Shown in pieces: positions 11,585-57,386 of a DNA stretch of 64,000 bases. The notes under the pieces were generated by a model. It was given only the letters and a program-made list of their open reading frames with translations. It was not told the origin of the DNA and did not search any database. Within the stretch, counting starts at the first letter, position 1. Each line of letters starts with the position of its first letter. The position numbers and the translations under genes were made by a program. Source of the DNA: a bacterium (lineage in GTDB: Bacteria > Patescibacteriota > Microgenomatia > UBA8517); contig CP129472.1 of assembly GCA_030583725.1 (NCBI GenBank), forward strand, positions 64,286 through 128,285, written 5' to 3'.

Positions 11585-12170
11585 GTGCCTGTTTATAATT
11601 TAGCGCGAACCTATTTTACAACAAATTTCTAATTTGTGCTGAGCAACAAGGGAGGGGTTAAAGGGGAAGGAATTGTTGCGAAGCTCGGGTTTCCTCGCTC
11701 AGCCACTTCGTGGCTTCGCTAACACAACCTGCAAAGCTCGAAGCTTTGCGCTCACCCCACTTTGTGGGGTTCGCTAACCCAATTTAAAGGAAAAGGGGAT
11801 TATTTATAGTTCCACTTCGTGGAACGGTACTGTTACGGTATCCGTAAGGTACTTAATCAATACCGTTGACTAGTCGTATTTTCGACCCTTTTGCCGTTTA
11901 ACGGTCCGTACGGTCGGTTAACGGCCACCGTTGGGGTAAGGCTGAACACAAAAACTAACCCATTTCAGTCGCAATTTGCCCTAAAGGGCAACTTACCCAA
12001 GTGCTAAAAGACAAAAACTGGTGCTTATGCACAGCACTTGGTTAGGAAGCTACAAGCACACACACATTGCTCCTGAAATATTCCCTTTACGGGGAATCCT
12101 GCCCAACACAAAGACACTCCAAAGCTACAGGGGTGTTGGCTTCCGCCATGTGCAGGGCAGGAAGAACAAA
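11585..12170 (-). ncRNA. Structured RNA-like element, copy A: a ~380-nt hairpin-rich module (about 12170->11809) contiguous with a 200-nt inverted-repeat arm (11784->11585). Unclassified large ncRNA candidate.
   Basis: Three diverged copies in the window share an ordered set of hairpins with compensatory changes: a closing helix CUCCUG/CAGGAG; CCUGCCC/GGGCAGG; H1 UGGC-GGAA-GCCA (A) vs AUGGC-GUAA-GCCAU (B) vs UUGGCC-AAA-GGCCAA (C); H2 AUUCCC-loop-GGGAAU; a CCAAGUGCU...AGCACUUGG helix enclosing GUGC-AUAA/GUAA-GCAC; H4 UUGCCC-UUUA-GGGCAA vs UUGCC-UGUUAAG-G(U/C)AA. G-U wobbles are only valid on this strand. Confidence 0.5.
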
Positions 12171-12216
12171 CAAGTGGTGGTTTTGTAAATCCTCTAGTAA
12201 TATAATTCAGTTTAGT

Positions 12217-13362
12217 ATGAACAAAAATGACCAGTGGGACAAACTTCATAAACATTATAAAAATCAAGATTGGATTGAAAAGCCAAATATCTTTGCAGAA
12301 GAAGTATTAGAGTATTTACCAAATAATGGAAAAATACTTTGTTTAGGAGATGGGCAAGGACAAGACGGAAGATTTTTTGCAATTAAGGGATATGAAGTAA
12401 CCTCAGCAGATATTTCAGAAGAGGCACAAAACATAAACAAAGAAAAAATAAAAGTGCAGGGTTTAAAAAACATTTCAGTTGAAAGATTAGATTTAAGAGA
12501 AAGGTTTCCGTATTATGATGCAAGTTTTGATGTTGTGTATGCACATTTGTCTCTACATTATTTTTCTGAAGAAGTAACAAAAAGTATTTTTAAAGAAATC
12601 AAAAGAGTACTAAAAGGTGGTGGAATACTTGCAGTATTTACAAACTCAGTTAATGACCCTGAGTTTAACACGGGGAAAAGAATAGAACAGGAACTATTTG
12701 AGATAGAAGGTATACAAAAAAGATTTTTCTCAAAGTATTCAATGGATTATTTTGCACAAGATTTTCAGGTAGTTCTTTTGGATGACAACGGAAAGACATA
12801 TAAAGATGAAGCAAAAGGAGTGCACAATTTAATTAGATTTGTTGGTAAAAACTATGCTAGAAGAAATAACCAAATTGCATTACCTTTTGTATCAGCAATT
12901 GTAGAAAGAGAAAATAATGGAGAAAAGGAAGTTTTAATTCAAACAAGATGGAGACCAAATGCAGAATGGAATTATCACAACACTATTGAAATTCCTGCAG
13001 GCGTGTTAGATAAAGGGTATGAGAATGTACTTGATGCAGTTAAAAGAGAAGTTAAGGAAGAAACAGGACTTGATGTCACTGAAATTGTAGGTTTAGAAAA
13101 AACTGATATTCACTCTCCAAAAGATGATGCTTCATATGCTTTTAAACCTTTTGCTTGTTCACAACAACTAAAAGCAGGACTTCCTTGGGTTGGATTTTGT
13201 TTTGTTTGTAAAGTAAAAGAGGGAGAAACTAAACAACAAGAAGATGAGACGAGAAATGTTAGATGGGCTAAAAAATCAGAACTCAAACAAATGATTAAAG
13301 AAACTCCAGGTAAATTCTTTACCTTGCATTTAGGAGTTTTAGAAATGTATTTAAAAGATTAA
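12217..13362 (+). CDS. Class I SAM-dependent methyltransferase fused to a NUDIX hydrolase domain
   Basis: Likely start at the ATG at 12217 (MNKNDQW...); the track ORF 12067 start would run through the RNA element. Motif I 'ILCLGDGQGQDGRFFA'; NUDIX box 'GVLDKGYENVLDAVKREVKEETGLDV'. Confidence 0.7.
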   Translation: MNKNDQWDKLHKHYKNQDWIEKPNIFAEEVLEYLPNNGKILCLGDGQGQDGRFFAIKGYEVTSADISEEAQNINKEKIKVQGLKNISVERLDLRERFPYYDASFDVVYAHLSLHYFSEEVTKSIFKEIKRVLKGGGILAVFTNSVNDPEFNTGKRIEQELFEIEGIQKRFFSKYSMDYFAQDFQVVLLDDNGKTYKDEAKGVHNLIRFVGKNYARRNNQIALPFVSAIVERENNGEKEVLIQTRWRPNAEWNYHNTIEIPAGVLDKGYENVLDAVKREVKEETGLDVTEIVGLEKTDIHSPKDDASYAFKPFACSQQLKAGLPWVGFCFVCKVKEGETKQQEDETRNVRWAKKSELKQMIKETPGKFFTLHLGVLEMYLKD

Positions 13363-13364
13363 CT

Positions 13365-13691
13365 ATGAAAAGAATAAAATTTGCTCCAAATTTAGTACAA
13401 CTAGTTCTTGATGGAACAAAAACTTCAACTTGGAGATTGTGGGATGACAAAGATTTACAAACTGGAGATATCGTTGAATTCGTAAATGCAGAAACGCTTG
13501 AAGTATTTTCAAAGGCAGAACTTACAAAAGTAATAGAAAAGCCCTTTAAGGATTTAACAGACGATGAAAAAGAAGGACATGAGAAATATATTAACACAGA
13601 AGAAATGTCTAAAAAATTTGAGGAATATTATCACAAGCCTGTTGATGAAAATACTTTATTTAAAATAGTTCACTTTAGACTCATTAAATAA
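13365..13691 (+). CDS. ASCH (PUA-like) domain protein
   Basis: 108 aa. 'KFAPNLVQLVLDGTKTSTWRLWD...GDIVEF' resembles the ASCH domain. Confidence 0.5.
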   Translation: MKRIKFAPNLVQLVLDGTKTSTWRLWDDKDLQTGDIVEFVNAETLEVFSKAELTKVIEKPFKDLTDDEKEGHEKYINTEEMSKKFEEYYHKPVDENTLFKIVHFRLIK

Positions 13692-13693
13692 CA

Positions 13694-14269
13694 ATGAAAG
13701 AATTTGTAGGTATCTTGGCAGTTATTTTAACTTTTGTAGGTTATGCGCCATACATTTGGGATACTGTAAAAGGTAAAACAAAACCTCATATTTATAGTTG
13801 GTTCACTTGGGCCTTTGTCACTTTTATTATTTTTGCTCTTCAAATTTTTGGCAAAGGTGGTGCTGGTGCATATACAACTTTAGCAACAGCAATTCTTTGT
13901 TTAATAATATTTTTATTGGGCTTAAAAAATGGCAATAAAGATATAACAAGATTTGATACTGTAACTTTTATAATCTCACTTATAGCAACTGCAGTGTGGA
14001 TTTTTGCCAAGCAACCAATAATTTCAACTTTCTTGATTGTTACAATAAATACTTTAGCAAATTTACCAACTATTAGAAAATCTTGGAATGATCCACATTC
14101 TGAAACTTTATTTACATGGCAAATGGGTGCTGTCCGTAATTTTTTAGGAATAATTGCTCTCCAAAATTATTCAATACTAACATGGTTATATCCTGTTACT
14201 AATTTAATAATAAACATCATTGAAAGTTGTATTTTGATAATTAGGAGGAAACAATTAAAAAACATATGA
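13694..14269 (+). CDS. Integral membrane protein (about 6 TM), hypothetical
   Basis: Multiple hydrophobic segments; 'WNDPHSETLFTWQMG'; start codon 3 nt after the upstream stop. Confidence 0.5.
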   Translation: MKEFVGILAVILTFVGYAPYIWDTVKGKTKPHIYSWFTWAFVTFIIFALQIFGKGGAGAYTTLATAILCLIIFLLGLKNGNKDITRFDTVTFIISLIATAVWIFAKQPIISTFLIVTINTLANLPTIRKSWNDPHSETLFTWQMGAVRNFLGIIALQNYSILTWLYPVTNLIINIIESCILIIRRKQLKNI

Positions 14270-14772
14270 TGTATGTTAAATACTACGAAAAAGAAATCCC
14301 AGACAAAGGGATGGGTGTTTTTGCTTCTGAATTTATACCAAAAGGAACATTAATTTGGAAACTTACTGAAACTAAAAAGTTTACAAAAGAAGAATGGGAA
14401 AAGTTACCCCATGAAATTAGAAAAGATGCATATCCAGACAGTGATGGTAATTTTGTGGCTGCAGTTGGTAAAGGAGAATCATGGAATCATAGTTGTGACA
14501 CTAACACTTGGTGGACAGCAGATGATGAACTATCAGCAAGAAGAGATATACAAAAAGATGAAGAGCTAACATATGATTATGCAACTTCAGACATTGATGA
14601 AACTAAAGGGACAGATGTTGCTTACGATTGGGAATGTAAATGTGGTTCAAAAAACTGTAGAAAGATTCTTCATTGGAATGACATTTTAGAACCAGAAATC
14701 TACAACACTTACAAAGGTCATTTACCTAGTTGGGTGGAGAAATTTGTAAAGGAACATAATAAAAATATATGA
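14266..14772 (+). CDS. SET-domain protein (putative protein lysine methyltransferase) with a post-SET Cys cluster
   Basis: 'GMGVFASEFIPKGTLIW', 'NHSCDTN', 'EELTYDY', post-SET 'ECKCGSKNCRK'. Confidence 0.7.
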   Translation: MMYVKYYEKEIPDKGMGVFASEFIPKGTLIWKLTETKKFTKEEWEKLPHEIRKDAYPDSDGNFVAAVGKGESWNHSCDTNTWWTADDELSARRDIQKDEELTYDYATSDIDETKGTDVAYDWECKCGSKNCRKILHWNDILEPEIYNTYKGHLPSWVEKFVKEHNKNI

Positions 14773-15761
14773 ACAACCTAGACGTATTGATTAAAAGAAC
14801 AAATTTAAATATTTCATTTGATGAATTTTTGAAAGATATTGAAGGTAAATTTACATCAATAGGAAAAATTGGAAATTATTCTCCGATCAATGAAGGATAT
14901 GAAGATGCAAATATTATTTTAAATACTTCAACTGGTAAATATGTTTTAAAAATATTTTTAGCTGAAAGAGAATTAGGAAACATAAACAGCTATGTAAAAA
15001 TACTAACTGAATGTAAAAAAGTTGGAGTACCAACTACAGAAATACTATTAGATTTTAATAATGGACTTGGTGTATTTGAAAATGAAGGTATAAAAACATA
15101 CTACATAATTACAAAGTTTTTTGAAGGTAATAACTTTCAGAATACTACTCCAACAATTGAAGATATAAGAAAAGTTACCGAGTGTGTAGCAAAATTAAAC
15201 ACTTTAAATTTCGAAGTTGGAGAGGGTTATGATTCTTGGGGAATTAAAGCATTTCCTGAAGAGTATAAAAATAAAAAAGAAAAATTAACTCCTGAACAAG
15301 ACTCATTAATCAAAGATATTTATGAAGAATATCTGAAGTTAGACATGACTAGTTTTAGTAAGTCAGTTATCCATGGAGACATGCAAAGAAAACATGTTAT
15401 CAAAAATAGTAACAACGAATATTGTATTTTAGATTTTGGTTGTATGGCGTATGACTACAAAGTTATTGAGTTAGCAACCTATCTTGCTTGGTTTTGCATA
15501 CAAAAAGATACTTGGAAAGATAAAGATTTAATCTATAAAGAGGTATTAGATATCTACAATTCAATACACCATCTATCAGAGCAAGAGATATTATCACTTC
15601 CTCTTTTAATTAAAGTTTCTTGTTCTGCATATTATGTGACAACTTCTGTGATGATAAATGAAGGTGATACTAGTGAAGAAACACTAGATTGGCACAATAG
15701 ATCAAAGAAGCTGTTGGAATTATCTAAAATATCGATATCAAACTTATCTACTTTGGGGTGA
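14769..15761 (+). CDS. Protein kinase-like phosphotransferase (APH / homoserine kinase II fold)
   Basis: 'VIHGDMQRKHVIKN' (H-x-D...N catalytic loop) and 'ILDFGCMAY' (DFG-like). Confidence 0.6.
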   Translation: MNNLDVLIKRTNLNISFDEFLKDIEGKFTSIGKIGNYSPINEGYEDANIILNTSTGKYVLKIFLAERELGNINSYVKILTECKKVGVPTTEILLDFNNGLGVFENEGIKTYYIITKFFEGNNFQNTTPTIEDIRKVTECVAKLNTLNFEVGEGYDSWGIKAFPEEYKNKKEKLTPEQDSLIKDIYEEYLKLDMTSFSKSVIHGDMQRKHVIKNSNNEYCILDFGCMAYDYKVIELATYLAWFCIQKDTWKDKDLIYKEVLDIYNSIHHLSEQEILSLPLLIKVSCSAYYVTTSVMINEGDTSEETLDWHNRSKKLLELSKISISNLSTLG

Positions 15762-16721
15762 ATGAATAAAAGATATATTTTTGAAGTTAATATTAAAGTT
15801 GAGCAAAGTAACTTCTGTATTGAGGATTCAACTATTAACGATTGGAGATTTTTTTGGACGAACGATAACGTTTGTGCCATCATATCTGCGACTAAATTAT
15901 TTAGCGGAAATGGACAAATGACTGATGGATTTGAATATTTAAATACGCCAGATAAATTAGGTTTGTTGATTGATTGTATAAGTTTTATTACAGACCTACC
16001 GGTTTCCTGTAAAGTAGACTTCCGACTTTTTCGTGTAGATGATAATAACAAAATTAACATTTTAGACTTGACAACACCATTTACTAAGCTATTGCAACAA
16101 GCCAGAAGTAATAAATTATTACAACATGGTAGTAGCGTCGACGAGTGGCCTATTAGGGTTAGTCCTGGAATTTCGCACAACTTTAGAAGCAAAGATATTA
16201 GTTTCATTCGACATCTATTTGTGCTAATTTCAAAAATACGAATAAAAAACACTTCAATTAAACTGTTAAATTATTGGAGAAAAGGATTTGACCTCGACGT
16301 GCTAAATTATTGGGATGAGAGCTTCTTGGTATTTTTTAAGATTCTTGAGTATTTCGACAAAAGATATCAACCTAATAATAATTTGTATATTGATAATAAA
16401 ATAATGAAAGCAAAATCAGAGATTTCCAAAAAAGCTTTAAGGATAGCTGGTGGCGCAGAATCTACTAAGCCAAGTAAGTATCTAATAAAACTGATTTCTG
16501 ATTTCATCGAAATAAGAAATAATTCAGACATTGCACACATGCGTATAAAACCGCTACCTAAAGATAGGAATGGTGCCTTTTATTTTACATCCTATTTAAA
16601 TATTTGGGACACACATGATGATATCAAAGAATTAGCAAGGCTCTTTGTTTATAAACAACTTGGTATTAAAGGTTTACAATTAAGGAATGATGGTGGTTTG
16701 TTTAAGTTAACAACGATTTAA
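15762..16721 (+). CDS. Hypothetical protein (319 aa)
   Basis: ORF in the same operon (start 1 nt after the upstream stop); no recognised motif. Confidence 0.45.
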   Translation: MNKRYIFEVNIKVEQSNFCIEDSTINDWRFFWTNDNVCAIISATKLFSGNGQMTDGFEYLNTPDKLGLLIDCISFITDLPVSCKVDFRLFRVDDNNKINILDLTTPFTKLLQQARSNKLLQHGSSVDEWPIRVSPGISHNFRSKDISFIRHLFVLISKIRIKNTSIKLLNYWRKGFDLDVLNYWDESFLVFFKILEYFDKRYQPNNNLYIDNKIMKAKSEISKKALRIAGGAESTKPSKYLIKLISDFIEIRNNSDIAHMRIKPLPKDRNGAFYFTSYLNIWDTHDDIKELARLFVYKQLGIKGLQLRNDGGLFKLTTI

Positions 16722-16723
16722 TT

Positions 16724-17362
16724 ATGAAAACACTTAATGTCTTCACAAATGAAAAAGGAGAATTTGGAAATCCTGTAGGAATAATTGTTGATTCCGAAAA
16801 CAAGATAGATGATAAAAAACGTCAGCAAATGGCAATTAATAGTGGTTTTAGTGAAATTGTGTTCATAAACAATCTTGAAACAAAAGATGTAAGTATCTTT
16901 TCTCCAACAAGACAAATTCCATTTGCTGGCCATGCTTTAGTTGGAACAAGTTACTTTTTTAACAATGTTTTAAATTTACCTACAATTGAAATTATAAGCA
17001 TGGGTAAGGTTATTAAATCATGGCAAGAAAACAAATTAACTTTTGTAGAAGCTGATCTTTCAATTTTACCTAATTGGAATATAAAAGAATATAAAACTCC
17101 AGAGGAAATAGAACAAATTACAATCCAAGAAGCTTCAATTTTAGAACACACTCTAGTTTGGTGTTGGATAGATAAAGAGAAAGGATTGGTTAGGGCTAGA
17201 ACATTTGCTTCTGACTGGGATATCCCAGAGGATGAAGCAAATGGATCAGGAGCAATGAAACTTGCAAGTTTAATTAATAGAAATCTAATCATTCATCATG
17301 GAAAAGGATCAGTTATTCATTCAACTCCAAGTTCAGTTGGTGGGTTAGTAAAACTAACCTAG
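16724..17362 (+). CDS. PhzF/YddE-family isomerase-like protein (short, 212 aa)
   Basis: 'EFGNPVGIIVD...NSGFSEIVFI...SPTRQIPFAGHALVGTSYF' matches the PhzF family N-terminal half. The 3' end abuts/overlaps the inverted-repeat arm. Confidence 0.55.
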   Translation: MKTLNVFTNEKGEFGNPVGIIVDSENKIDDKKRQQMAINSGFSEIVFINNLETKDVSIFSPTRQIPFAGHALVGTSYFFNNVLNLPTIEIISMGKVIKSWQENKLTFVEADLSILPNWNIKEYKTPEEIEQITIQEASILEHTLVWCWIDKEKGLVRARTFASDWDIPEDEANGSGAMKLASLINRNLIIHHGKGSVIHSTPSSVGGLVKLT

Positions 17363-17384
17363 TTTTGTAATAACAACAAAACAC

Positions 17385-17584
17385 AATTGGGTTAGCGAAC
17401 CCCACAAAGTGGGGTGAGCGCAAAGCTTCGAGCTTTGCAGGTTGTGTTAGCGAAGCCACGAAGTGGCTGAGCGAGGAAACCCGAGCTTCGCAACAATTCC
17501 TTCCCCTTTAACCCCTCCCTTGTTGCTCAGCACAAATTAGAAATTTGTTGTAAAATAGGTTCGCGCTAAATTATAAACAGGCAC
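17385..17584. repeat. 200-bp inverted-repeat arm A' (exact reverse complement of 11585..11784)
   Basis: Read by eye as an exact 200/200 reverse-complement match to the arm adjacent to ncRNA copy A. Internal hairpins GCAACAA..UUGUUGC, GCCAC-UUCG-UGGC, GCAAAGCU-CGA-AGCUUUGC, CCCCAC-UUU-GUGGGG. Confidence 0.85.
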
Positions 17585-17647
17585 CCAACCCCGACCTGTC
17601 GGGGTCGAGCGAAGCGAAGACCACGACATTTGCCCATCCCCTCGGAC
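17582..17647. repeat. ~65-bp inverted repeat IR65a (left arm, upstream of recombinase 1); partner at 19179..19244
   Basis: 'cacccaaccccgacctgtcggggtcgagcgaagcgaagaccacgacatttgcccatcccctcggac' is the reverse complement of 19179..19244; contains the palindrome CCCCGACCTGTCGGGG. Confidence 0.8.
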
Positions 17648-17693
17648 GAAAACAACACAAGACAAAACAAAAAAGTTGATATTATTTGATGCC

Positions 17694-17723
17694 TTGATAT
17701 GGATTATTTACGGGCGTATAAAT
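17694..17723 (+). promoter_or_regulatory. Sigma70-like promoter for recombinase 1: TTGATA - 17 nt - TATAAAT, start codon ~7 nt downstream (leaderless)
   Basis: TTGATA at 17694-17699, 17-nt spacer, TATAAAT at 17717-17723. The same 30-nt sequence 'ttgata(c/t)ggattatttacgggcgtataaat' is conserved upstream of all three recombinase genes. Confidence 0.65.
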
Positions 17724-17729: not shown

Positions 17730-19355
17730 GTGAAGCACAATATTGTAAATAATCCATTACATCCAAAATTCTTCCTCTACGCAAGAAAGTCTACAGATGT
17801 AGAAGATAAACAAGTGCAGTCTATTGAGGGTCAGCTTCAGGAGTTACATGAACTTGCTAAGAGAGAAAATTTAATCATTGTAGATGAATTCATTGAAAAA
17901 CAATCTGCCAAAACTCCCGGAAGGTCAATTTTTAATAAAATGTTGGATTCTATTGAACAAGGTCATGCAAATGGAATTCTCTCTTGGCATCCTGATAGAC
18001 TAGCAAGGAACTCTGTAGACGGCGGAAGAATTATTTACCTATTAGACACAGGTAAATTGTCTGCCCTCAAATTTAATACCTTTTGGTTTGAGTCCACTCC
18101 ACAAGGAAAGTTTATGCTGTCAATTGCGTTTTCTCAATCTAAATATTATGTAGATAGTTTAAGTGAAAATACTCGTCGTGGACTCAGGCAAAAAGCTAGA
18201 AATGGATATTCTCCAACTGTTGCTCCGCTTGGTTATATAAATGATATTAGAAGTAAAACTGTTGTTCTTAATAGAAAATTAAGTCCAATTGTTCAGGAAG
18301 CTTTTGAAAAATATAGTGTTGGGAATATCCTAATGAAAGATGTGTCTAGCTTTTTGGCAAAGAATGGGATTCTTAACCCAAATGGTAAGAAATTTGATTT
18401 GAATAGAATAAAAAGACTTTTAACCAATCCATATTACTGTGGATATTTTGTATATGGTGGAGAAGTGTATGAGGGCAGACACGATCCAATAATTTCAAAG
18501 AAACTTTTTGACAAAGTCCAAGATGTAATGAGTGTTAGAAATCACTCTTGGAAAAATGCAAAAGTAGAAAAGATTTCTAAACCCTTTGATGGACTTCTAA
18601 GGTGTGGTGAGTGTGGCATGATGATTTCTCCTGATTTTAAAGTTAAACATTATAAAAATGGTACTTGTGGCTACTTTAATTACTATAGATGTACAAAAAA
18701 GAATAGAAGTATAAAGTGCCGACAGTCTCATATTAGAGTGAGTGGTTTAGAAAGCCAACTCATCACACTTGTCAAAAAATATTCTTTGAAAAATGATTGG
18801 GCTATAAAAATGAACGAGAAACTTGATGAAGAACAAAAGGATATAGCCCAATCAATCCTTCCTGTTGTTGCAGAAAAAAGGAAAGAAATTGAAAGCATTA
18901 ACACTAAACTCCAACTTCTTCTTGATACTTATTTAGATCAGACAATTGATAAAGAAATGTATAAGGTTAAGAAGTTGGAGCTTTTTTCCAAAAGGAAAAC
19001 TTTTGAAGAACAAATTCTTTCCTTGCAACAACATAAAGGAAGTTGGATCGAACCTATGCGAAATTGGATATCTGAGGCTAGGGAAGTAGATCAAATAATA
19101 TCAACTAACAACAAAGAACAATTAAAGGTCCTCGCGAAGAAAATCTTCGGCTCGAACCTTTACCTAGAGAACAAAACAGTCCGAGGGGATGGGCAAATGT
19201 CGTGGTCTTCGCTTCGCTCGACCCCGACAGGTCGGGGTTGGGTGGACCTAGGGAGAATCGAACTCCCGTTACATGACTGCCAGCCACGTGTCCTACCATT
19301 GAACGACAGGCCCCAATACTTTGAGATTCCTCTGTGTGGACCCTGCAGGACTTGA
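17730..19355 (+). CDS. Large serine recombinase 1 (resolvase catalytic domain + recombinase domain + zinc ribbon + coiled coil)
   Basis: 'FFLYARKSTDVEDKQVQSIEGQ' (catalytic Ser), 'WHPDRLARN', zinc ribbon 'LRCGECGMMISP...YRCTKKNRSIKC'. Probable GTG start at 17730; the track's N-terminal extension covers the promoter. No stop until 19355: the C-terminus ('GDGQMSWSSLRSTPTGRGW') is encoded by IR65a' and the frame reads on antisense through tRNA-Ala. Confidence 0.85.
   Translation: MKHNIVNNPLHPKFFLYARKSTDVEDKQVQSIEGQLQELHELAKRENLIIVDEFIEKQSAKTPGRSIFNKMLDSIEQGHANGILSWHPDRLARNSVDGGRIIYLLDTGKLSALKFNTFWFESTPQGKFMLSIAFSQSKYYVDSLSENTRRGLRQKARNGYSPTVAPLGYINDIRSKTVVLNRKLSPIVQEAFEKYSVGNILMKDVSSFLAKNGILNPNGKKFDLNRIKRLLTNPYYCGYFVYGGEVYEGRHDPIISKKLFDKVQDVMSVRNHSWKNAKVEKISKPFDGLLRCGECGMMISPDFKVKHYKNGTCGYFNYYRCTKKNRSIKCRQSHIRVSGLESQLITLVKKYSLKNDWAIKMNEKLDEEQKDIAQSILPVVAEKRKEIESINTKLQLLLDTYLDQTIDKEMYKVKKLELFSKRKTFEEQILSLQQHKGSWIEPMRNWISEAREVDQIISTNNKEQLKVLAKKIFGSNLYLENKTVRGDGQMSWSSLRSTPTGRGWVDLGRIELPLHDCQPRVLPLNDRPQYFEIPLCGPCRT
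19179..19244. repeat. IR65a' (right arm); encodes the recombinase 1 C-terminus and abuts the tRNA-Ala 3' end
   Basis: Reverse complement of 17582..17647. Confidence 0.8.
19243..19313 (-). tRNA. tRNA-Ala (anticodon GGC)
   Basis: Manual cloverleaf: acceptor GGGCCUG/UAGGUCC with the G3:U70 Ala identity pair, anticodon loop CUGGCAG, T-arm GGGAG-UUCGAUU-CUCCC, discriminator A. Convergent with, and overlapped by, the recombinase 1 ORF. Confidence 0.8.
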
Positions 19356-19410
19356 ACCTGCGACCTCTTTCACGTCAAGAAAGCGCTCTAGCCAACTGAG
19401 CTAAGAGTCC
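19337..19410 (-). tRNA. tRNA-Val (anticodon GAC)
   Basis: Manual fold: GGACUCU acceptor, D-arm GCUC-AGUUGGCUA-GAGC, anticodon loop UUGACGU, T-arm GCAGG-UUCAAGU-CCUGC. Confidence 0.8.
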
Positions 19411-43712: not shown

Positions 43713-43721
43713 TATGTAACA

Positions 43722-47314: not shown

Positions 47315-47478
47315 GTATCCTTAACAGAACATTCAACTAATTAAGTGCTTTTTGTAATTGTTGTACAAAAGTTAATCTAACTTTCATTAAACATTTATTT
47401 CCCTGCGATGTCAACAACGACTGCGTTGAAGGAGTAAATCAGATAGGTTTCCGATTTTACCCATATTTTTAGTAGATT

Positions 47479-49120: not shown

Positions 49121-49166
49121 TTATTTTCCTTAGAAATCGATTATACTATATCAGTTAACCAAAAAT

Positions 49167-50381: not shown

Positions 50382-50388
50382 ATATATT

Positions 50389-51462
50389 ATGTTGGACTTA
50401 TCAAGTGATATATTTTCGGGAAAATATTTACCTTCACAATGGGAAAGAAAAGAAATAGACGTGAGTAAATATGAAAAAGCATTAAATATTATTTGTCCAA
50501 ATATGGATATATTGGGTCAATTGACAAGAAGTACTAACACTGTATCTTTTGTGTTGAAAAGCTCACAAAAATTATTCGTATGCCAATTTGCACCTCCAAA
50601 TTTAACCAAAGTATCTAAATTTGAAGAAAAGAACAACCCAAACAAATTTCAAGGTGCTCAAGAACGTATGGCACACCTAAATGAGCATAAAATATCTGTG
50701 CCTGAAATAATATTAAAAGGAGAAACAATAATCGACAGCCAAAAAAGACAATACATTGTAATGAATTTTGTTGATGGGATAAGTGCTGACCGTCTATTAG
50801 CAAGATCGCCTGAATCCAGATTAACTATATATCATGAGTTTGGTAGAATTTTATCAAAATTGTCGACTGTTCCAATCATTGAGCCTGAGAATAGAACTCC
50901 CTCAAAAATTGTATTAGATAAAGTTAATCACGCTGCAAAATATATTTTAAACAGAAAAATTATATCTCAAGATCAATTTGATAAATTAATAATGTTAGTA
51001 AATGCTCGACTAACAATACTAGGTGAGATGCCTCTGGCCTATGTTCACTTAGATCCTTCTCCAACCAATTTACACATAAAGATTCAGGGCACAAAACATG
51101 TAACAACATTAATGGATATTGAAGCAATTCAAATTGGACATCCAATTATTGAAGGACTAGGTCGAGCAATCATGACTGGTATCTATGATTGGAGTTATAT
51201 TACAAACGGAAATACCGATGAAATTCAGTCCAATGTAGAATCATTTCTTAGTGGATATTCTGAGATGTCTTTATATGCAAAAAGTTTACTAAGATCGAAA
51301 AAAGATTTTGAATGGCTATTACAAACTTGTCGAATTATACATTTACCTCAATCAATCATGTATGAAGACAAAAAAGACACATCTTTATTTAATCCAGACG
51401 ATATATCGTTTAATTGGAGTATCGACACCTTACAGAAGCTAATAACAGGTAACGAAAAATAG
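50389..51462 (+). CDS. Kinase-like phosphotransferase (APH/CotS family)
   Basis: 'YVHLDPSPTNLHI' catalytic loop, 'LMDIEAI' DxE/DFG-like. Confidence 0.55.
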   Translation: MLDLSSDIFSGKYLPSQWERKEIDVSKYEKALNIICPNMDILGQLTRSTNTVSFVLKSSQKLFVCQFAPPNLTKVSKFEEKNNPNKFQGAQERMAHLNEHKISVPEIILKGETIIDSQKRQYIVMNFVDGISADRLLARSPESRLTIYHEFGRILSKLSTVPIIEPENRTPSKIVLDKVNHAAKYILNRKIISQDQFDKLIMLVNARLTILGEMPLAYVHLDPSPTNLHIKIQGTKHVTTLMDIEAIQIGHPIIEGLGRAIMTGIYDWSYITNGNTDEIQSNVESFLSGYSEMSLYAKSLLRSKKDFEWLLQTCRIIHLPQSIMYEDKKDTSLFNPDDISFNWSIDTLQKLITGNEK

Positions 51463-51477
51463 AAGTTGACAAAATAT

Positions 51478-52605
51478 CTATTTAAGAAGTTCTTTTATTT
51501 TTTCTATTGCAAGATCTACTCCATTACCACCCAACGAATCTATATAATCCTTACCTTTTTTCACCATTTCATTGGACCATTCATTTCTATTTTTTACAAG
51601 ATCATTAAGTTCTAAACCAATTTTACGCTGAACATCTTCAGATTTTTCTAAAAGTCGTAGTTGTTCAAGTACCAGTCTCATACTTTCCTCCCCTGGAAGA
51701 TGAAGTAAATTAAGTTCAGGGAAAAACTCTTTAAGATGGACTGATGCTTTTGCTAAACCAAGACCATTAAAACCATCTAATTGTATATATTGACTGTCGT
51801 TTGATGGTGGCAAATAAACTACAGGCGTTTCAGTGTAAAATGCACCCCTTGCAGTTATCAGACCTGGGGTGATAAGTATAACTTCAGATTGGGACATCTC
51901 ACTTACAAATTTGTCATGTGCAAGAGTAGTAAACTCAAAAGGTGTATTTGCGAATCTTTTTTTAAGTTCTTCAACTGTTTTTTCATTTGTTGCAAGAATC
52001 ACACGTTCAAAATCTGACCAATCAACATATTTTGAAAGAATATCTGTCATTACAAAGGGGAAATTGGTATCCTTTCCAACTTTGTACACATGGGTTGCTT
52101 GCGCACCTCCAAACGAAATGAATGCTTGTTTTTTTCTAGGTAATTTTTTAGATTTGGCCATAATTGGACCGACAGTTAATAGGTTTTTAATCTTGTCGAC
52201 ATAAAGATTGTCATTTGCACTGGAATAAAATGTTCGTTCACGAATATAAAGGTCAACATCAAAAAGTTCATCTGAAATGGATGGCCAAAACCAGAACAAA
52301 ACGTCCTCATATATAGTAATTTTGTTATGCTTCTTAGCAATTTTTATACTTGCAAGGTCCATACAACTAACTACTGCGTCACATTTAGATATAATATCTT
52401 CAAGCTTGGATAGATTTTTAGGATCTTCTATATCAAGTTCATAAACTTCATTAAAGGGAAATTTTCTAGCCAATTGAAGCGATGTTCCAAAACCTACAAA
52501 AATTAATTCAAAATCTTTAGTATTTCTAAATTCTTCAATAAGATATAGTAATGGACCCACTGAACCGAAGGCAAAATCTTGAGCTGTAAAAACAATCTTC
52601 ATCAT
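51478..52605 (-). CDS. GT-B fold glycosyltransferase-like protein (MGT/UDP-glycosyltransferase-like), tentative
   Basis: Two-domain Rossmann-like pattern; 375 aa. Confidence 0.4.
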   Translation of the reverse strand: MMKIVFTAQDFAFGSVGPLLYLIEEFRNTKDFELIFVGFGTSLQLARKFPFNEVYELDIEDPKNLSKLEDIISKCDAVVSCMDLASIKIAKKHNKITIYEDVLFWFWPSISDELFDVDLYIRERTFYSSANDNLYVDKIKNLLTVGPIMAKSKKLPRKKQAFISFGGAQATHVYKVGKDTNFPFVMTDILSKYVDWSDFERVILATNEKTVEELKKRFANTPFEFTTLAHDKFVSEMSQSEVILITPGLITARGAFYTETPVVYLPPSNDSQYIQLDGFNGLGLAKASVHLKEFFPELNLLHLPGEESMRLVLEQLRLLEKSEDVQRKIGLELNDLVKNRNEWSNEMVKKGKDYIDSLGGNGVDLAIEKIKELLK

Positions 52606-52647
52606 GATGTAGTATTATACTACTATCAGGCACAAAATGTTTAACTT

Positions 52648-53508
52648 ATGAAAACTATTAATTATTCTAAGCAAAGCGCTTTAGGTTATGCTGGTTTAGC
52701 TTTGCTCCGAAACTGGCTAATCGGCAAAAGTTCTTCAATTACTTCGATATTTAATGAAATATCGAATCTCGCAGAAAACCAAGCCGACACACTAGAAGTA
52801 ACAGATATAAAAACAAAGGCAGTTGAACATAATATCGAATCTGGTTATAAAATATGGTCCAAAATATACGATACCGAAGAAAACATATTAATTGAGATTG
52901 AAGAACCAATTGTCAAGAAATTATTAGAAAAATATCCGACAGGAAAAGTAGTTGATCTAGGATGTGGAACTGGAAGATATAGCCTATATCTTAATTCACT
53001 TGGCCATTCTGTTACTGGAATTGATATCTCTGAAGATATGATAAACATAGCTCGATCAAAAAACAAAAAGGTTAAATTCCTTCAAGGAGACATGAGAAAG
53101 CTTCCATTTAATGATAATGAATTCGACTTTGCTATTTCAGGTTTAGCGATACACTATGTAAAAAATTTAGAGGAAACAATAAAAGAATACTCAAGAGTTT
53201 TAAAGCCTGGTGGAAAACTAATTATCTCTAGCATTCATCCTTGGATGGTTGCATTAGGAGTGCATGCCGAGTTCCATGATAAGAAATCTGGATGGGGCTT
53301 TATTAGAGACAGTATCTTATGGCACAGTTCATACATTGAAGCGTTTAATAAAGCATCGTTGCAAATTGTACATTGTTATGAACCTAAAATAGAATCTAGC
53401 CATATTAAAACTTTACAAAAATGGTCAATACTCAGTCCTAAAACATTATCATCAGCATTAAAGGGATTACCAGTTGCTATAATTTGGGTTCTTAAAAAAA
53501 ATAAATAA
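52648..53508 (+). CDS. Class I SAM-dependent methyltransferase
   Basis: 'VVDLGCGTGRYSLYL' motif I, 'LKPGGKLII'. Confidence 0.7.
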   Translation: MKTINYSKQSALGYAGLALLRNWLIGKSSSITSIFNEISNLAENQADTLEVTDIKTKAVEHNIESGYKIWSKIYDTEENILIEIEEPIVKKLLEKYPTGKVVDLGCGTGRYSLYLNSLGHSVTGIDISEDMINIARSKNKKVKFLQGDMRKLPFNDNEFDFAISGLAIHYVKNLEETIKEYSRVLKPGGKLIISSIHPWMVALGVHAEFHDKKSGWGFIRDSILWHSSYIEAFNKASLQIVHCYEPKIESSHIKTLQKWSILSPKTLSSALKGLPVAIIWVLKKNK

Positions 53509-55055
53509 TGATGAAACACAAAGAAGCACTCACCCAAAAAAGTAACGATTACTCATCACTTGAAAAAGAGTATTTGAAACTCACAAGATCAGAATTACTA
53601 GATCCATTTTCTGTTCCGCCAGATATAAAGATCAATGAGGATATGACAGCTACAATCATAATTCCTGGAAAGAATGTTGAGCCATCGATTCTTGCCTGTC
53701 TTGTGGCAATTGAGCAAAGTAGCTTCAATATTAAGTATCCAGAAAAATTAGAAGTTATATTTATTGATGATGGCTCAAATGATAGAACATGGGAAATTAT
53801 TAATAATAATGATCTTGCATTGAATCTTGTTGTAATAAAGCAAAAACATTCAGGCCAATCACGTGCACTTAATACTGCAATTTCTATTGCTAAAAATAAA
53901 ATTATTATTTCTTGTGATGCAGACATGATTCTTTCTTATTACACAATTGAACAGTTAATGATAAGGCACCAGCTGTTTCCAAATGTCTTGTTAGCAGGAT
54001 TTCGTTCAGAAGTATCTAAGGACGACCCACGAGTTGATCCTAAAAATATAAGGCATTTGGGATTACACAGATATCCGACTCTGACAACTGATGAGAGGAT
54101 AGTATTTTCATCATCAGGTTATCCGAACAATATGTGCTTAGCAAGTAATCATTATAAAGATTTAGGGCACTTAAATGGGCTCTGGATGCGTAATACTAAT
54201 GATCCTTGGTTAGTTTCTGATCTAGTTTTTGGTGCACTTTTTAGCCTTCCAAAAGAAACTTACAATGAAATAGGTGGATTTGAGGAACGATTCATTGGTT
54301 ATGGTTGTGCTGATGGTTATGTAGCCTCAAAGGCTATTTCTTTAGGAAAATTCATCTTGCCTGTCTACTCTGCTACAGGATTACACATTAGTCACTCATC
54401 GAGGACAGAAGATAAATTTAGTGAATACTTAAATAATCGACGTATGTTTTACAAACTGATAGAAGAGACCGAAACAAATGACTTTATGAATTGGATAGAT
54501 AAACCAAAAGATCATATTATTGAGCAAATACACAAGAAACCTGCACTTATTAGAATATCAAATAATGACGCTTCCATTAAAACGAATGTTCCTAGAAACT
54601 TAGAAATCGATACATTATTAGCCATTGGTCAATTTAACAAGGTAATAGATCATATACCTAAAGATACATCGGATGAGAAGCTACTTTTAAATTTAGGTCA
54701 TGCATATTTAGGTACGGAAAATTACAATGAGGCAGTTGATATTTTTAATAAATTATCAGAAAAATCAAATGACTACCTACTTGGTTTATTTCAATCTCAG
54801 GTAGCAATAGAGAAATTTTCTGATGCTGGAAAAACTTTAGAAAGATATCTCCAAACTATTGAAGTTAATGAAGATATTAGTTATTGGAATAACAATCCAG
54901 AATTTTATATAAAACAAGGAACACTTTTTTATAATCAAAATTTTTACAAGATAGCAATTAGATGCTTTGGGATCGCTTTAGCTAAACAGCCATCTAATAG
55001 TATTGCTTTGGATTATCACGACAGATGTCTTCAAAAACTACAAAAAATTAGTTAG
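53508..55055 (+). CDS. Family 2 glycosyltransferase with C-terminal TPR repeats
   Basis: 'TIIIPGKNVEP...IFIDDGSNDRT' GT2 N-terminal signature; TPR-like C-terminal third. Confidence 0.7.
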   Translation: MMKHKEALTQKSNDYSSLEKEYLKLTRSELLDPFSVPPDIKINEDMTATIIIPGKNVEPSILACLVAIEQSSFNIKYPEKLEVIFIDDGSNDRTWEIINNNDLALNLVVIKQKHSGQSRALNTAISIAKNKIIISCDADMILSYYTIEQLMIRHQLFPNVLLAGFRSEVSKDDPRVDPKNIRHLGLHRYPTLTTDERIVFSSSGYPNNMCLASNHYKDLGHLNGLWMRNTNDPWLVSDLVFGALFSLPKETYNEIGGFEERFIGYGCADGYVASKAISLGKFILPVYSATGLHISHSSRTEDKFSEYLNNRRMFYKLIEETETNDFMNWIDKPKDHIIEQIHKKPALIRISNNDASIKTNVPRNLEIDTLLAIGQFNKVIDHIPKDTSDEKLLLNLGHAYLGTENYNEAVDIFNKLSEKSNDYLLGLFQSQVAIEKFSDAGKTLERYLQTIEVNEDISYWNNNPEFYIKQGTLFYNQNFYKIAIRCFGIALAKQPSNSIALDYHDRCLQKLQKIS

Positions 55056-55806
55056 ATATAGGAATTCCAGTTGGAGTTGTTGTTGATTCTACTGTTGGAA
55101 TTGGAGTCGGTGCAACTGTAGGAACGGGAGTTTCTGTAGGCTTTGGTGTTGGAGTTGTTGTTGGGATTGGTACTGGTGTTGTTGAAAGTACTTCTAGATC
55201 TTGGATATCTTCTACTTCTAACACTTTGTTTTTAGAATCATATGTACCAACTGCAAGTATTCTTTTTCCAACTAGAGTAGAAAGATTAAAACCAACTGGT
55301 ATTTCTAAAGTAACAGCTTCTGTTGATGTGGTGATTAAATAAAATTTAACAGGATTAGTATTTGTTTTTGTTAATGTTCCTTTTAAGGCTGTATCTTTTA
55401 ATAATTCAGGAGTTGGCGTGTTTGTGGGAGTTGTGACTATAGAATTATTAAATTTTATCCAAGGAAAGAAAGTTGGAAGAACTACGCCACCTAAACCAAA
55501 GGCAAGTGAAAAAGCAATTAATGCAACTCCAAAGACTGTAAGAGGTTTCATTCTAAATCTCATATCAATTCCTTCATTTGCCATTATTCTTCTCCACCAA
55601 TACTTAATATATACAAGTGGATTAGTTACTTTTAAATTAACAAGATCAGGAGGGTTAGTTGTATTTACTGAAGTTGGGTTGTTAACTGATACAGATATTG
55701 GCGGTAGTTTTGTTGGATCATCTTTTGCAACAAACTTACCACCACTACCTCTAACTTGTTTCTTTGCATTCTCACTTTTAATTTGACTTAAAATATCATC
55801 CTCCAT
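55048..55806 (-). CDS. Membrane-anchored protein with a Pro/Thr-rich C-terminal tail
   Basis: Single TM; tail 'TPVPIPTTTPTPKPTETPVPTVAPTPIPTV'. Confidence 0.45.
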   Translation of the reverse strand: MEDDILSQIKSENAKKQVRGSGGKFVAKDDPTKLPPISVSVNNPTSVNTTNPPDLVNLKVTNPLVYIKYWWRRIMANEGIDMRFRMKPLTVFGVALIAFSLAFGLGGVVLPTFFPWIKFNNSIVTTPTNTPTPELLKDTALKGTLTKTNTNPVKFYLITTSTEAVTLEIPVGFNLSTLVGKRILAVGTYDSKNKVLEVEDIQDLEVLSTTPVPIPTTTPTPKPTETPVPTVAPTPIPTVESTTTPTGIPISN

Positions 55807-55853
55807 GTTTTTACCTCTAATTAAATATTAGTACTTTGAAAGGCAAACTACAA

Positions 55854-56696
55854 TCATTTATCAAACTTTTTAAATTCAGTTTCACGATCCTCAATTATTT
55901 CATTTACATTACCCCAATTATTTTGAGCTGGTGTTAATTTAAGCAAAACTAATAATCTTAATAAAATTGTTAATCCTAACATTAAGGTAAGCCACAAAAT
56001 AACAGTTGATACTAAAATTTTTACAATAGTAGCTAGGTATTTAAATATAAAGACTTTTTTAGTCAACTCTGGATTGTAAAGTGATATAAATATCAAAGTA
56101 ATTAAAATTACTAATGCTACAATTGAAATTATCAAGATATCCTTAATATTAGCAGATGAGACAACCCCAATTAATTCATAGGCAGATAAACATTCTGATT
56201 TTCCTTGCTTTGATATAACTTTTGATAAATCTCTTTTATTTACAGGACCAAACGATCTTGAATCATTTGAATTTAACCGATTGTCCCCTAGAACAAAATA
56301 TTCATCATTATCTAAAACTACTGATTGGTTATCATTTTCGTGTGCACTTATGTCTAAAAATCCATTTTCGCTAACTATTTTGTCATTAATATAAATTTTT
56401 GAATTAACTATCGTTACCTTTTCATTTGGTAGTCCAATTATTCTTTTAACAAAATCAGCGTTCTCAACACTTGAATCATATTTACTACCATCAAAAGTGA
56501 CAACATCGCAACGATTATAAGACACTAGTCTTCTAACTGAAGAGTAACTATCACGATTACTAAAGTAAGGATTCATTGAATTTCCCATAACATCACCATT
56601 ATCAAAGCCCGATATAAAATATAAACCTATCAATAGTACGATGCCTATCCCACCATGTTTAAGAATATCTAGAAAAATCTTTTCGATTTTCTTCAT
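55854..56696 (-). CDS. lepB: Signal peptidase I (S26) with an extended C-terminal membrane region
   Basis: 'GNSMNPYF' (catalytic Ser), 'GDNRLNSNDSRSFG' (box E). Confidence 0.7.
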   Translation of the reverse strand: MKKIEKIFLDILKHGGIGIVLLIGLYFISGFDNGDVMGNSMNPYFSNRDSYSSVRRLVSYNRCDVVTFDGSKYDSSVENADFVKRIIGLPNEKVTIVNSKIYINDKIVSENGFLDISAHENDNQSVVLDNDEYFVLGDNRLNSNDSRSFGPVNKRDLSKVISKQGKSECLSAYELIGVVSSANIKDILIISIVALVILITLIFISLYNPELTKKVFIFKYLATIVKILVSTVILWLTLMLGLTILLRLLVLLKLTPAQNNWGNVNEIIEDRETEFKKFDK

Positions 56697-56744
56697 AATT
56701 TCAGTTTACTCTTTTGGTTATAAGTTGTTAATCTCTTTTATTGT

Positions 56745-57386
56745 TCTCCTGCCCATGCACATTGGCCAAAGGCCAACCACCCCTGTAAGCTTTGGGGTGT
56801 TTTGTGTTGGGCAGGATTCCCGACAGGGAATATTTCAGGAGCAATGGTTTTGTTGTTTTTGTGTTCTAACCAAGTGCTGTGCCGAAGGCACTTTTGGAGT
56901 TGTTTTCTAGCACTTGGGTAGTTGCCTGTTAAGGCAAATTGCGACTGAAATGACACATTAGAAATCCTTTAAAAATAGGTCTTGTTTAGTTTTTGTGTTC
57001 ATATGTGAACTTGCGGTGACCGCATCCGCAACCGCAGTACCGCAACTCCGCAATATGCCCTATAATACGACACGATTGCGGATTTTATAAAGGTCTCTGC
57101 GGTATACCGCAAGGGCACCGTCAGACACTCGCAAGTGTCTGACTCTACAAATAACCCCTTTTCCTTAAAGTGGGTAAGCGGAAGGCCGAAACGAGCGAAG
57201 CGAGTGGAGGCCTGGAGCGCACACACGATTGGGTTAGCGAAGCTCCGCGAAGCGGAGCTGAGCGAGCAACACGAGCATTCTCCAATTCATTTCCCCTTTA
57301 ACCCCTCTTCTTGGAGAATGCAAACAAAGATGTTAAACTATACATGTTGGCGAAACCAAGTCAGAGCGGTTTGGAAAAGTCGCTCC
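56745..57386 (+). ncRNA. Structured RNA-like element, copy C (hairpin-rich module 56745..~57165 + inverted-repeat arm 57166..57386)
   Basis: Closing helices CUCCUG/CAGGAG and CCUGCCCA/UGGGCAGG (perfect 8 bp); UUGGCC-AAA-GGCCAA; AUUCCC-GACA-GGGAAU; CCAAGUGCU..AGCACUUGG enclosing GUGCC-GAA-GGCAC; UUGCC-UGUUAAG-GCAA; UGCGG-UAUA-CCGCA; GUCAGACAC-UCGCAA-GUGUCUGAC; then the junction 'cuacaaauaaccccuuuuccuuaaag'. Confidence 0.5.

Follow-up and report, generated by a model that had tools for sequence, protein, structure and literature searches.

Three probable integrative islands of a large serine integrase family, each with an inverted internal attachment site, at tRNA genes of a Microgenomatia chromosome

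Introduction

What does it mean when the same set of parts stands three times beside three different tRNA genes of one bacterial chromosome, and does such DNA move? The question arose from a 64,000-nt stretch, hereafter the window, of a Microgenomatia (UBA8517) chromosome (contig CP129472.1 of assembly GCA_030583725.1, positions 64,286 to 128,285 of the forward strand). The chromosome is bacterial, has a G+C content of ~33% and carries genes for BipA, PheT, ThrRS and Ddl in the window. A first-pass annotation made from the letters had described three modules (M1, M2 and M3), each with a tRNA gene, a convergent large serine recombinase (LSR) gene, two pairs of inverted repeats, cargo genes and a structured RNA. 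We propose that the modules are probably three independent insertions of one family of LSR-mobilised integrative islands typical of Patescibacteria. The element is of a known kind, the LSR integrative island, in a variant with a new layout, and does not constitute a new category.

Results

Layout of the modules

We called tRNA genes with ARAGORN, which found 10 in the window, and located repeats with a repeat finder followed by a base-by-base check of all three modules. The short inverted repeat is designated S and S', and the long arm A and A'. With the tRNA read 5' to 3', M1, M2 and M3 share one order: tRNA.S, the integrase gene reading towards the tRNA, S'.A', cargo, an RNA-like region and A.flank (Table 1). 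The S pair flanks the integrase gene, with one copy beginning within the last bases of the tRNA, and the A pair flanks the cargo, the inner A copy abutting the inner S copy. Five of the six repeat pairs are perfect, the sixth has a single mismatch, and no pair can be extended by one base. Chance is excluded as an explanation: perfect inverted repeats of ~200 bp stand in one order in all three modules, and many unrelated assemblies have this layout too.

The five-part architecture that the first-pass annotation had described was recovered in full, with limits that moved by a few bases at most. ARAGORN agreed on tRNA-Ala(GGC), tRNA-Leu(CAG) and tRNA-Gly(GCC); the inverted pair of ~65 bp contiguous with the tRNA 3' end measured 66, 66 and 70 bp, and the perfect arms of ~200 bp measured 200, 203 and 218 bp, all 100% identical. 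The convergent recombinase genes carry LSR domains and read towards the tRNA. The cargo, given as 5.6, 7.5 and 15 kb, measured 5.6, 7.6 and 15.3 kb, and the RNA-like region at the far end (~580-650 nt) was matched by a profile in all three modules. The repeats had been called clearly diverged between modules, and the S and A segments are indeed only ~70-80% identical from one module to another. The module limits needed trimming: the core units stood, but tRNA-Val (19336-19410) and the Leu-Val-Phe tRNAs (39517-39871), which had been drawn into the modules, are host sequence. One claim had to be reversed, since the ~100-nt segment shared by M2 and M3 (tgtgttttgttgttat) had been placed at the far-end arms and actually adjoins the inner arms near the recombinase (31700-31776 and 41860-41936).

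A ATAACAACAAAACACA motif is conserved before every inner arm on the cargo side (17369-17384, 31700-31776 and 41860-41936), and beside it M2 and M3 share a further ~77 nt at 93% identity. This segment could be a promoter reading into the arm. The host context consists of two tRNA operons, Val(GAC)-Ala(GGC) and Leu(CAG)-Leu(AAG)-Val-Phe-Gly(GCC), and the insertions lie after Ala, after the first Leu and after Gly, the target tRNAs remaining complete.

Table 1. Features of modules M1, M2 and M3, with positions counted from the first base of the window
Feature	Position	Strand	Remarks
M1 distal arm A	11585-11784	-	attR side, P arm; core CAC at outer end beside host flank
M1 RNA-like module	11586-12169	-	outward from cargo through arm A to core; nhmmer profile, model R1 234 bits
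M1 A pair	11585-11784 / 17385-17584		200/200 identical
M1 cargo	11785-17384	+	7 open reading frames: methyltransferase-NUDIX, ASCH, SET, APH kinase, PhzF-like fragment, unknowns (Pfam)
M1 internal inverted attP	17385-17647	+	arm A (17385-17584) fused to S (17582-17647) at CAC
M1 spare integrase 3' end	17537-17665	-	codes ...VRGDGQMSWSSLRSTPTGRGW/VPVYNLARTYFTTNF, then stop
M1 tail beyond core			PVYNLARTYFTTNF, then stop
M1 S pair	17582-17647 / 19179-19244		66/66 identical
M1 integrase promoter-like site	17694-17722	+	TTGATA-N17-TATAAA
M1 large serine integrase	17730-19355	+	GTG start; conserved body to core (19244); reading frame open through antisense tRNA-Ala
M1 S' at attL	19179-19244	+	encodes last ~22 conserved integrase codons
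M1 target tRNA-Ala(GGC)	19241-19313	-	crossover at C72-A73-(+1)
M2 large serine integrase	29642-31345	-	ATG at 31345; open through core and antisense tRNA-Leu to 29642
M2 target tRNA-Leu(CAG)	29751-29835	+	core GCACC = positions 71-75, including part of CCA end
M2 S at attL	29830-29895	+	repeat comparison
M2 S pair	29830-29895 / 31436-31501		65/66 identical
M2 integrase promoter-like site	31356-31384	-	pattern search
M2 spare integrase 3' end	31423-31545 (frame)		codes ...WSALRADPPSRKMV/HIYSLVRTYFTTHF, then stop
M2 tail beyond core			HIYSLVRTYFTTHF, then stop
M2 internal inverted attP	31436-31699	+	S' (31436-31501) fused to A' (31497-31699)
M2 A pair	31497-31699 / 39273-39475		203/203 identical
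M2 cargo	31700-39272		unknown 284-aa protein, GNAT, M20 peptidase, arginine deiminase, arginyl-tRNA synthetase, EamA transporter
M2 RNA-like module	38896-39475	+	includes distal arm A; nhmmer profile, folding, covariation
M2 distal arm A	39273-39475	+	attR side, within RNA-like module
M3 large serine integrase	39817-41496	-	ATG at 41496; open through core and antisense tRNA-Gly to 39817
M3 target tRNA-Gly(GCC)	39925-39997	+	core GCTCC; encoded CCA becomes CCC upon insertion
M3 S at attL	39992-40061	+	repeat comparison
M3 S pair	39992-40061 / 41578-41647		70/70 identical
M3 integrase promoter-like site	41506-41534	-	pattern search
M3 spare integrase 3' end	41562-41690 (frame)		codes ...TGRGWE/RLFQTALTWFRQHV, then stop
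M3 tail beyond core			RLFQTALTWFRQHV, then stop
M3 internal inverted attP	41578-41859	+	S' (41578-41647) fused to A' (41642-41859)
M3 A pair	41642-41859 / 57169-57386		218/218 identical
M3 cargo	41860-57168		SNase, Mokosh-like helicase-PLD (1074 aa), tRNA-Ser(AGA), hydrolase, methyltransferases, APH kinase, glycosyltransferase, signal peptidase
M3 RNA-like module	56737-57386	+	includes distal arm A; nhmmer profile, covariation
M3 distal arm A	57169-57386	+	attR side, within RNA-like module

Attachment sites

Alignment of the three junctions of each module revealed that they share only a core, CAC in M1, GCACC in M2 and GCTCC in M3, which falls on the discriminator/CCA end of the tRNA (positions ~71-75). 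The core is bordered by the tRNA or arm A on one side and by S or host flank on the other. The tRNA/S junction is attL, the A/flank junction is attR, and the inner A/S junction is an intact attP in inverted orientation, so that inspection of the sites of all three recombinases, which had been put forward as a check of the modules, gave the attL/attP/attR relation around a core of 3-5 bp. As with serine integrases, the sites have in common this short core and no long direct repeat of the target. The mark of tyrosine-type islands is missing: there is no displaced tRNA 3' fragment, and the two ends share only 3-5 bp. The reconstructed attB junctions read tRNA-Ala/ACAGAGAG..., tRNA-Leu ...GCACC/TTGACG... 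and tRNA-Gly ...GCTCC/ATAGCG....

Counted outward from the core, a T-loop box, T[CT][GA]AAC, lies at +13 in the antisense tRNA, and a similar box in the P arm, [TC][CA]GAAC (e.g. TCGAAC), lies at +17. The box is displaced by +4 in the P arm relative to the tRNA in 26 of 28 elements. In the LI/A118 integrase system, attP half-sites reportedly have the zinc-ribbon-domain motif ~5 bp further out than attB half-sites, and the +4 offset fits this rule for the spacing of attP-type and attB-type half-sites. The TCGAAC-type box is presumed to be an integrase-binding box. Every tRNA gene offers the same geometry of CCA end, acceptor stem and T-loop, and the family can therefore use many tRNAs; targets among the related loci comprise tRNAs for Thr, Cys, Gly, Val, Lys, Glu, Arg, Leu, Ile, Asn, Tyr, Phe and Gln. 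Insertion of serine integrase elements at tRNA genes was called previously unreported in a survey that put it at 4.9%, against 44.5% for tyrosine integrases (PMC7192596).

At the tRNA-Gly site (39992-39997 versus 57382-57389), the empty site reads ...GC-T-CCA and the inserted one ...GC-T-CCC, A76 being replaced, and the CCA of tRNA-Leu(CAG) is unchanged. In five related loci (L027, L028, L057, L058 and L224; L numbers denote related loci and contigs) S adjoins a flank that is not a tRNA but keeps the ending ...CACCA or ...TACCA, which suggests pseudo-sites or non-tRNA targets that mimic the CCA end.

Integrase and its rewritten gene end

The M1 integrase has the Pfam domains Resolvase (PF00239), Recombinase (PF07508) and Zn_ribbon_recom (PF13408), with the catalytic serine in a conserved YARKSTD motif, and the AlphaFold model of a homologue has long helices at residues 355-435. 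The three integrases of the window are 56-57% identical to each other. Their search against known integrases, likewise suggested at the outset, identified a large serine integrase with weak and distant matches to the A118 integrase, CcrB and XisF.

We then compared the 3' end of the gene in its two contexts. Among loci with an adjacent convergent tRNA, the integrase open reading frame (ORF) has no stop before the tRNA junction in 53 of 54; in the window the frames extend past the core to 19355 (M1), 29642 (M2) and 39817 (M3). Because the frame is open across the junction, the C-termini of homologues end in peptides of the antisense T arm, e.g. G[ILF]EP. When the inner inverted copy is read in the integrase frame, it continues for 12-16 codons past the core and then stops. 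This tail, x[LF][YF]xx[AV]RT[YH]Fxx[NK] followed by a stop, is conserved in 44 distinct elements when read from the internal copy, and its arginine is kept despite changes between CGA and AGA codons. In the attP state the integrase thus ends in a conserved tail of ~14 residues, and in the integrated state in antisense-tRNA residues instead. Since the tail occurs only in the configuration joined to A, an intact integrase gene exists only in the attP state. The full-length tail stands at the C-terminus of 7 of 120 database homologues; in a full-length homologue AlphaFold models it as a helix, with mean predicted local distance difference test (pLDDT) values of ~76-84 for 10-residue blocks over the last 19 residues.

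S itself holds a GC-rich hairpin with a 3-nt loop whose stems covary across the family, which accounts for the encoded 'W-[SA]-A-L-[RC]-A' peptide. Standing just downstream of the tRNA, the hairpin may serve as the tRNA terminator. Promoter-like sites of the integrase genes were located by eye and by a pattern search, the sigma-70 and terminator scans being uninformative. A TTGATA-N17-TATAAA site is near-identical in M1-M3 (28 of 29 nt), and this 29-nt stretch, TTGATA(T/C)GGATTATTTACGGGCGTATAAA, lies in modules that are otherwise ~75% alike, which suggests an operator or another regulatory constraint. With the end of the inner attP ~45 nt upstream of the -35 box, autoregulation by the integrase is plausible.

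Family of related elements

A search with the M3 integrase gave 6,564 database matches, the best 120 of which formed our detailed homologue set. These are 56-92% identical to the M3 integrase, all have the three domains named above, and their sources, where named, are Microgenomates, Daviesbacteria, Gottesmanbacteria, Curtissbacteria and Patescibacteria. When one genome of each species was scanned, at least 594 integrase loci came up in genome contigs, and 80 loci with 83 integrase genes were kept. The S pair is present at 54 of these 83 genes and both pairs at 17 within the available sequence; A always abuts S, and the two overlap by 3-10 bp in 16 of the 17 elements with both pairs. Across the family S is 60-220 bp and A 137-405 bp long, and the copies are mostly 99-100% identical, a few pairs being at 95-98%. 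The layout recurs in dozens of independent Patescibacteria assemblies, many of whose contigs end at the repeats, as would be expected of repeats close to the assembler k-mer size. The first-pass annotation could not match the combination to a described type of element, and we found no description of this layout in the literature.

We considered a phage origin and rejected it: a viral contig collection held only 13 distant relatives, at most 42% identical over the full length. Two related loci have a divergent arrangement. In the metagenome contig L196 (11490-11770) the far arm of one element is followed by tRNA-Ser(TGA), whose CCA end is joined directly to an inner-type arm A' (79% like the first) and not to S, with a palindromic core, CG; the arrangement might stem from reverse insertion of a whole element, or from a cargo cassette that lacks an integrase. 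In the Saccharibacteria locus L057 (5256-7068 and 9715) the arm pair lies 2.6 kb from S and does not abut it, and the locus may be a rearranged derivative, perhaps with DNA inserted at the inner attP.

Occupancy and orientation

Relatives were compared for occupied and empty tRNA sites. A Woesebacteria locus (L080), syntenic with 21.3-25.9 kb of the window at 74-79% nucleotide identity, has an element after tRNA-Val(GAC), whereas the same site in the window is empty and is directly followed by tRNA-Ala, after which M1 stands. The integrase of L081 is 92% identical to that of M3 and sits at the same tRNA-Gly; the DNA is 88% identical through the SNase gene and then gives way to different cargo. 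As is typical of tRNA islands, the tRNA is left intact, the arrays are additive (two insertions in one 5-tRNA operon) and sites are polymorphic for presence and absence. The proposal of three related but independent mobile elements at a tRNA hotspot is consequently upheld by the att logic, the occupancy in L080 and the cargo swap in L081.

Three contigs among those of the homologues with the full-length tail (L222, L223 and L225) have the order A.S, integrase, S'.A', that is, attP on both sides, an arrangement expected only in an excised circle and therefore suggestive of one. L222 is the 13-kb contig k141_697151 (ERZ27253369), which was analysed up to its last ~1 kb. At three loci (L009, L023 and L044) the tRNA is just upstream and the integrase reads away from it, i.e. 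the gene is flipped, and L042 is flipped likewise, as judged by its translated upstream repeat copy; L051, where the gap between tRNA and gene is too small for S, is a doubtful fifth case, and in L224 the flank adjoining S is not a tRNA. Altogether, 56 of the 83 integrase genes are canonical and 4 apparently flipped, the latter at contig ends. Because contigs of the excised and flipped types end in repeats, both are no stronger than suggestive. Of the two properties in the earlier phrase 'mobile or invertible', mobility is thus supported, and inversion is at most a minor state.

Structured RNA

M1-M3, L080 and 13 metagenome contigs have a conserved region of ~580 nt in common, arm included, which lies at the far end in M1-M3 as well as in L196, L095 and L148. 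The outward-reading strand folds better (z = -5.9 versus -3.2), and such a strand preference is limited to the 5' RNA domain and to the M2 module as a whole. Alignment of 15 sequences of the 5' domain gave 47 predicted pairs, 96.7% paired; nine of these pairs changed on both sides, a number reached in 0 of 500 shuffles (slid controls gave at most 1), and several G-U variants would be mismatches on the other strand. From this covariation the region is a candidate lineage-specific structured RNA. The RNA region gave no match in Rfam 15, either at the gathering score, where only the tRNAs of the window were found, or at E<=1, where matches were at chance level.

The structured RNA had been taken as a part of the module. 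It is present and covarying in M1-M3, but it is confined to one sub-lineage: of 76 sources, a covariance model of the 5' domain (R1) matches M1-M3 and L080 alone, and in the smallest elements one gene takes up all the space. We accordingly rejected the idea that the RNA belongs to the element type in general. Strand-specific arm folding as a family trait was rejected as well, since the arms form good folds on either strand and favour neither consistently. Stable GC hairpins with 3-nt GNA loops abound in both the arms and S.

Cargo and neighbouring genes

The cargo of the window is accessory in type. It differs in every element of the family, with genes in either direction, and is arbitrary and variable. 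Its size is 1.1-9 kb in the 17 two-pair elements and up to 15 kb with the window included, and the smallest elements hold a single ordinary gene or little more, such as alanine racemase, prolyl-tRNA synthetase (ProRS) with a kinase, or an HD protein with a methyltransferase (ProRS and alanine racemase in L075 and L056). An SNase gene with an FtsK-gamma-like gene is common only to relatives of M3, and no replication or partition genes are conserved among the cargos. Within the M2 cargo (34779-37941), the arginine deiminase gene is next to that for a 645-aa arginyl-tRNA synthetase (ArgRS), and in the middle of the M3 cargo tRNA-Ser(AGA) (47229-47314) lies beside the Mokosh-like helicase-PLD gene (43722-46946).

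Directly outside the far end of M3 (57518-59768) we observed a gene for an unknown 424-aa protein and a gene with DUF5677 and helix-turn-helix domains, which may form another accessory or defence locus. Further on (60409-62491) are two neighbouring D-Ala-D-Ala-ligase-like paralogues, in which an 88-nt stretch is 70% identical (61308-61395 and 62332-62419).

Discussion

Proposed mechanism

In the mechanism that we propose, the excised circle would contain a 1.6-kb integrase cassette between two inverted attP copies, a topology like that of the 2-micron plasmid. If the element integrated by the attP overlapping the gene's 3' end, the integrase would be left truncated and convergent with the tRNA and the element locked in, and such a lock-in would explain the dominant orientation. 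The spare 3' end (S' and A') would allow a full-length integrase to form again, either by a rare S x S' inversion or by integration via the other attP, and the repeats would be kept identical by gene conversion or repeated recombination. In the sub-lineage that has it, the ~580-nt RNA would be transcribed outward through arm A and, in the circle, would be antisense to the integrase 3' end. We also asked on paper if the inner attP might come from a simple fusion or inversion of single-attP elements and discarded this origin; the observed order cannot be reached by recombining any two single-attP circles or insertions, so that the doubled attP must be an inherited design. A more ambitious version, in which directionality is encoded in the DNA without a separate excision factor, and in which the element, its integrase end being rewritten by recombination and restored from the spare inverted 3' end, toggles between a locked and a mobile state and retargets to any tRNA, is in our estimation rather doubtful, as is any such switch role of the spare end.

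Several observations weigh against the interpretation as active integrative islands. The signs of excision, circles and inversion come from assembled contigs of relatives and not from reads of the window, and these contigs of the excised and flipped types are short or end in repeats, so that an ambiguity of the assembly graph is possible. Assembler collapse of repeats may also have inflated part of their near-perfect identity. Two equivalent attP copies predict ~50% flipped integrase genes, and the observed 56 to 4 needs selection or some asymmetry. No recombination directionality factor was found, nor a conserved small gene beside the integrase in the cargos compared. Selfish islands do not usually carry housekeeping-type cargo (ArgRS in the window, ProRS and alanine racemase in other elements), and fixation of some copies is conceivable. 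Lastly, the conserved tail overlaps the conserved DNA motif that is presumed to be the integrase-binding box; its conservation is hence not purely at the protein level, and the tail may be dispensable.

Alternative explanations

Could the recombinase serve phase variation, inverting the A-flanked cargo or its own S-flanked gene, with the tRNA adjacency only historical? Both segments do lie between perfect inverted repeats with the crossover core at their ends, a few loci have the integrase cassette in the other orientation, and many contigs break at the repeats. We consider such a switch improbable in view of the bias in orientation (56 canonical versus 4 flipped), the distal position of the RNA in M1-M3, L196, L095 and L148, and junctions that follow the attL/attR/attP logic with different tRNAs; occupied and empty sites with variable cargo mean insertion and not switching alone, the enzyme is a large serine integrase and not a small invertase, and the cargo genes run in either direction with no external promoter logic. 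We assign the same low likelihood to the proposal that the modules are fixed remnants, old insertions with an inactive, tail-truncated integrase whose repeats stay identical through RecA-dependent gene conversion. All three integrase genes have had their tails swapped, no directionality factor was found, an arginyl-tRNA synthetase is part of the cargo and some repeats of the family are decaying (95-98% identity), all of which this proposal would accommodate. It is harder to reconcile with three ORFs that run unbroken to the core and still have a conserved promoter, with the different occupancy in L080, and with excised-type configurations within the family.

The remaining possibilities strike us as far less likely. 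One is a single-strand 'splint', whereby S:S' and A':A would pair in single-stranded DNA during competence or at a replication fork and align the ends for circularisation or deletion without a recombinase. The inner junction is indeed the exact complement of the joined ends, and the repeats are long (60-400 nt), near-perfect and, like folded DNA, rich in the GC hairpins with GNA loops described above. On the other side, nothing points to a single-stranded stage, integration needs no more than the integrase and the attP/attB logic, and the orientation bias and conserved ORF tail would be left unexplained; we thus find the splint very improbable. A shade less credible still is RNA-guided recombination, with the large RNA specifying target and donor sites as bridge or seek RNAs do for IS110/IS1111. 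It could draw on the conserved, covarying ~580-nt RNA that is read across the core at the element end and on the many different tRNA targets. No stretch of 9 nt or more in the RNA is complementary to its target; the single longer match (10 nt, sense orientation, M3) falls in the host flank, and 8-nt matches of the RNA or inner region to reconstructed attB recur in cross-module controls. The 5' domain is absent from other lineages with the same layout and would not fit into the small elements, a protein-type half-site motif with the attP/attB offset accounts for target choice, and the enzyme is a serine integrase and not a DEDD transposase. We give almost no credence to an assembly artefact of chimeric or collapsed repeats. 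The window probably comes from a metagenome assembly, and repeats above k-mer size break many related contigs, yet three diverged copies in the same order stand on one contig, dozens of independent assemblies from different laboratories and assemblers have the same layout, and an assembler cannot invent junctions of unique sequence to a repeat. Three independent insertions of one island family remain our preferred reading.

Comparison with known systems

Among known elements, the tycheposons of Prochlorococcus are cargo-carrying islands that likewise target the ends of tRNA genes, form arrays beside tRNAs and bring adaptive or defence cargo; 910 of 937 use tyrosine recombinases and a minority an LSR (Hackl et al., bioRxiv 10.1101/2020.12.28.424599). 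Unlike the present islands, many have replication genes, the host phylum is different, and no inner inverted attP, double inverted repeats or integrase ORF crossing the site has been reported for them. With phage-type LSRs (A118/LI, Bxb1, phiC31 and TP901-1) and with SCCmec Ccr and XisF the family shares the domain set, the short core, the half-site spacing and the lack of long attP-attB homology, but it differs in targeting tRNA 3' ends, in having attP within the integrase ORF and a second, inverted attP, and in the absence of an evident directionality gene. An ORF that crosses attP, so that integration alters or splits the 3' end of the gene, is known for IntP/IntX of Mx8 and SSV-type integrases, according to a passage in PMC4383910 that cites Tojo et al. 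1996. Those are tyrosine integrases with no spare inverted 3' end, in contrast to the serine integrase here, whose ORF crosses the junction at 53 of 54 loci.

The yeast 2-micron plasmid has 599-bp inverted repeats, each with a target (FRT) of the tyrosine recombinase Flp, which split the circle into two unique segments, and Flp recombines the two repeats together for copy-number amplification. The predicted circle would resemble it in having two long perfect inverted repeats that hold the recombinase target, with one segment encoding the recombinase; the islands differ in being mostly integrated and in having no known origin or partition genes, and a serine integrase would not be expected to recombine attP with attP. 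In Tn3/gamma-delta the res site of the serine recombinase also lies directly upstream of the recombinase promoter, with possible autoregulation, but it is a three-subsite resolution site of a small resolvase in a replicative transposon and not an inverted copy of an attachment site. In switches of the Hin/Gin type and in invertons, a small serine or a tyrosine invertase flips a segment between inverted repeats, and both orientations are frequent; the present islands have inverted repeats, a large integrase, and 56 canonical to 4 flipped genes, the flipped ones at contig ends. The IS110 bridge RNA and IS1111 seekRNA systems combine a DEDD-type recombinase with complementary RNA loops, and we found neither.

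Significance

Control of integration and excision by a serine integrase gene that is rewritten by its own reaction, along with a second, inverted attP, would be new if true, and enzymes that, as it seems, take the universal CCA/T-loop end as attB would be of interest for genome engineering. The associated large RNA is a new candidate structured RNA. The repeats of the elements explain recurrent contig breaks in assemblies of the Candidate Phyla Radiation (CPR). Patescibacteria have tiny genomes and few recognised mobile elements, and a family with thousands of copies that moves arbitrary single genes, among them aminoacyl-tRNA synthetase and defence genes, to the ends of tRNA genes would be a major unrecognised route of gene flow in the CPR.

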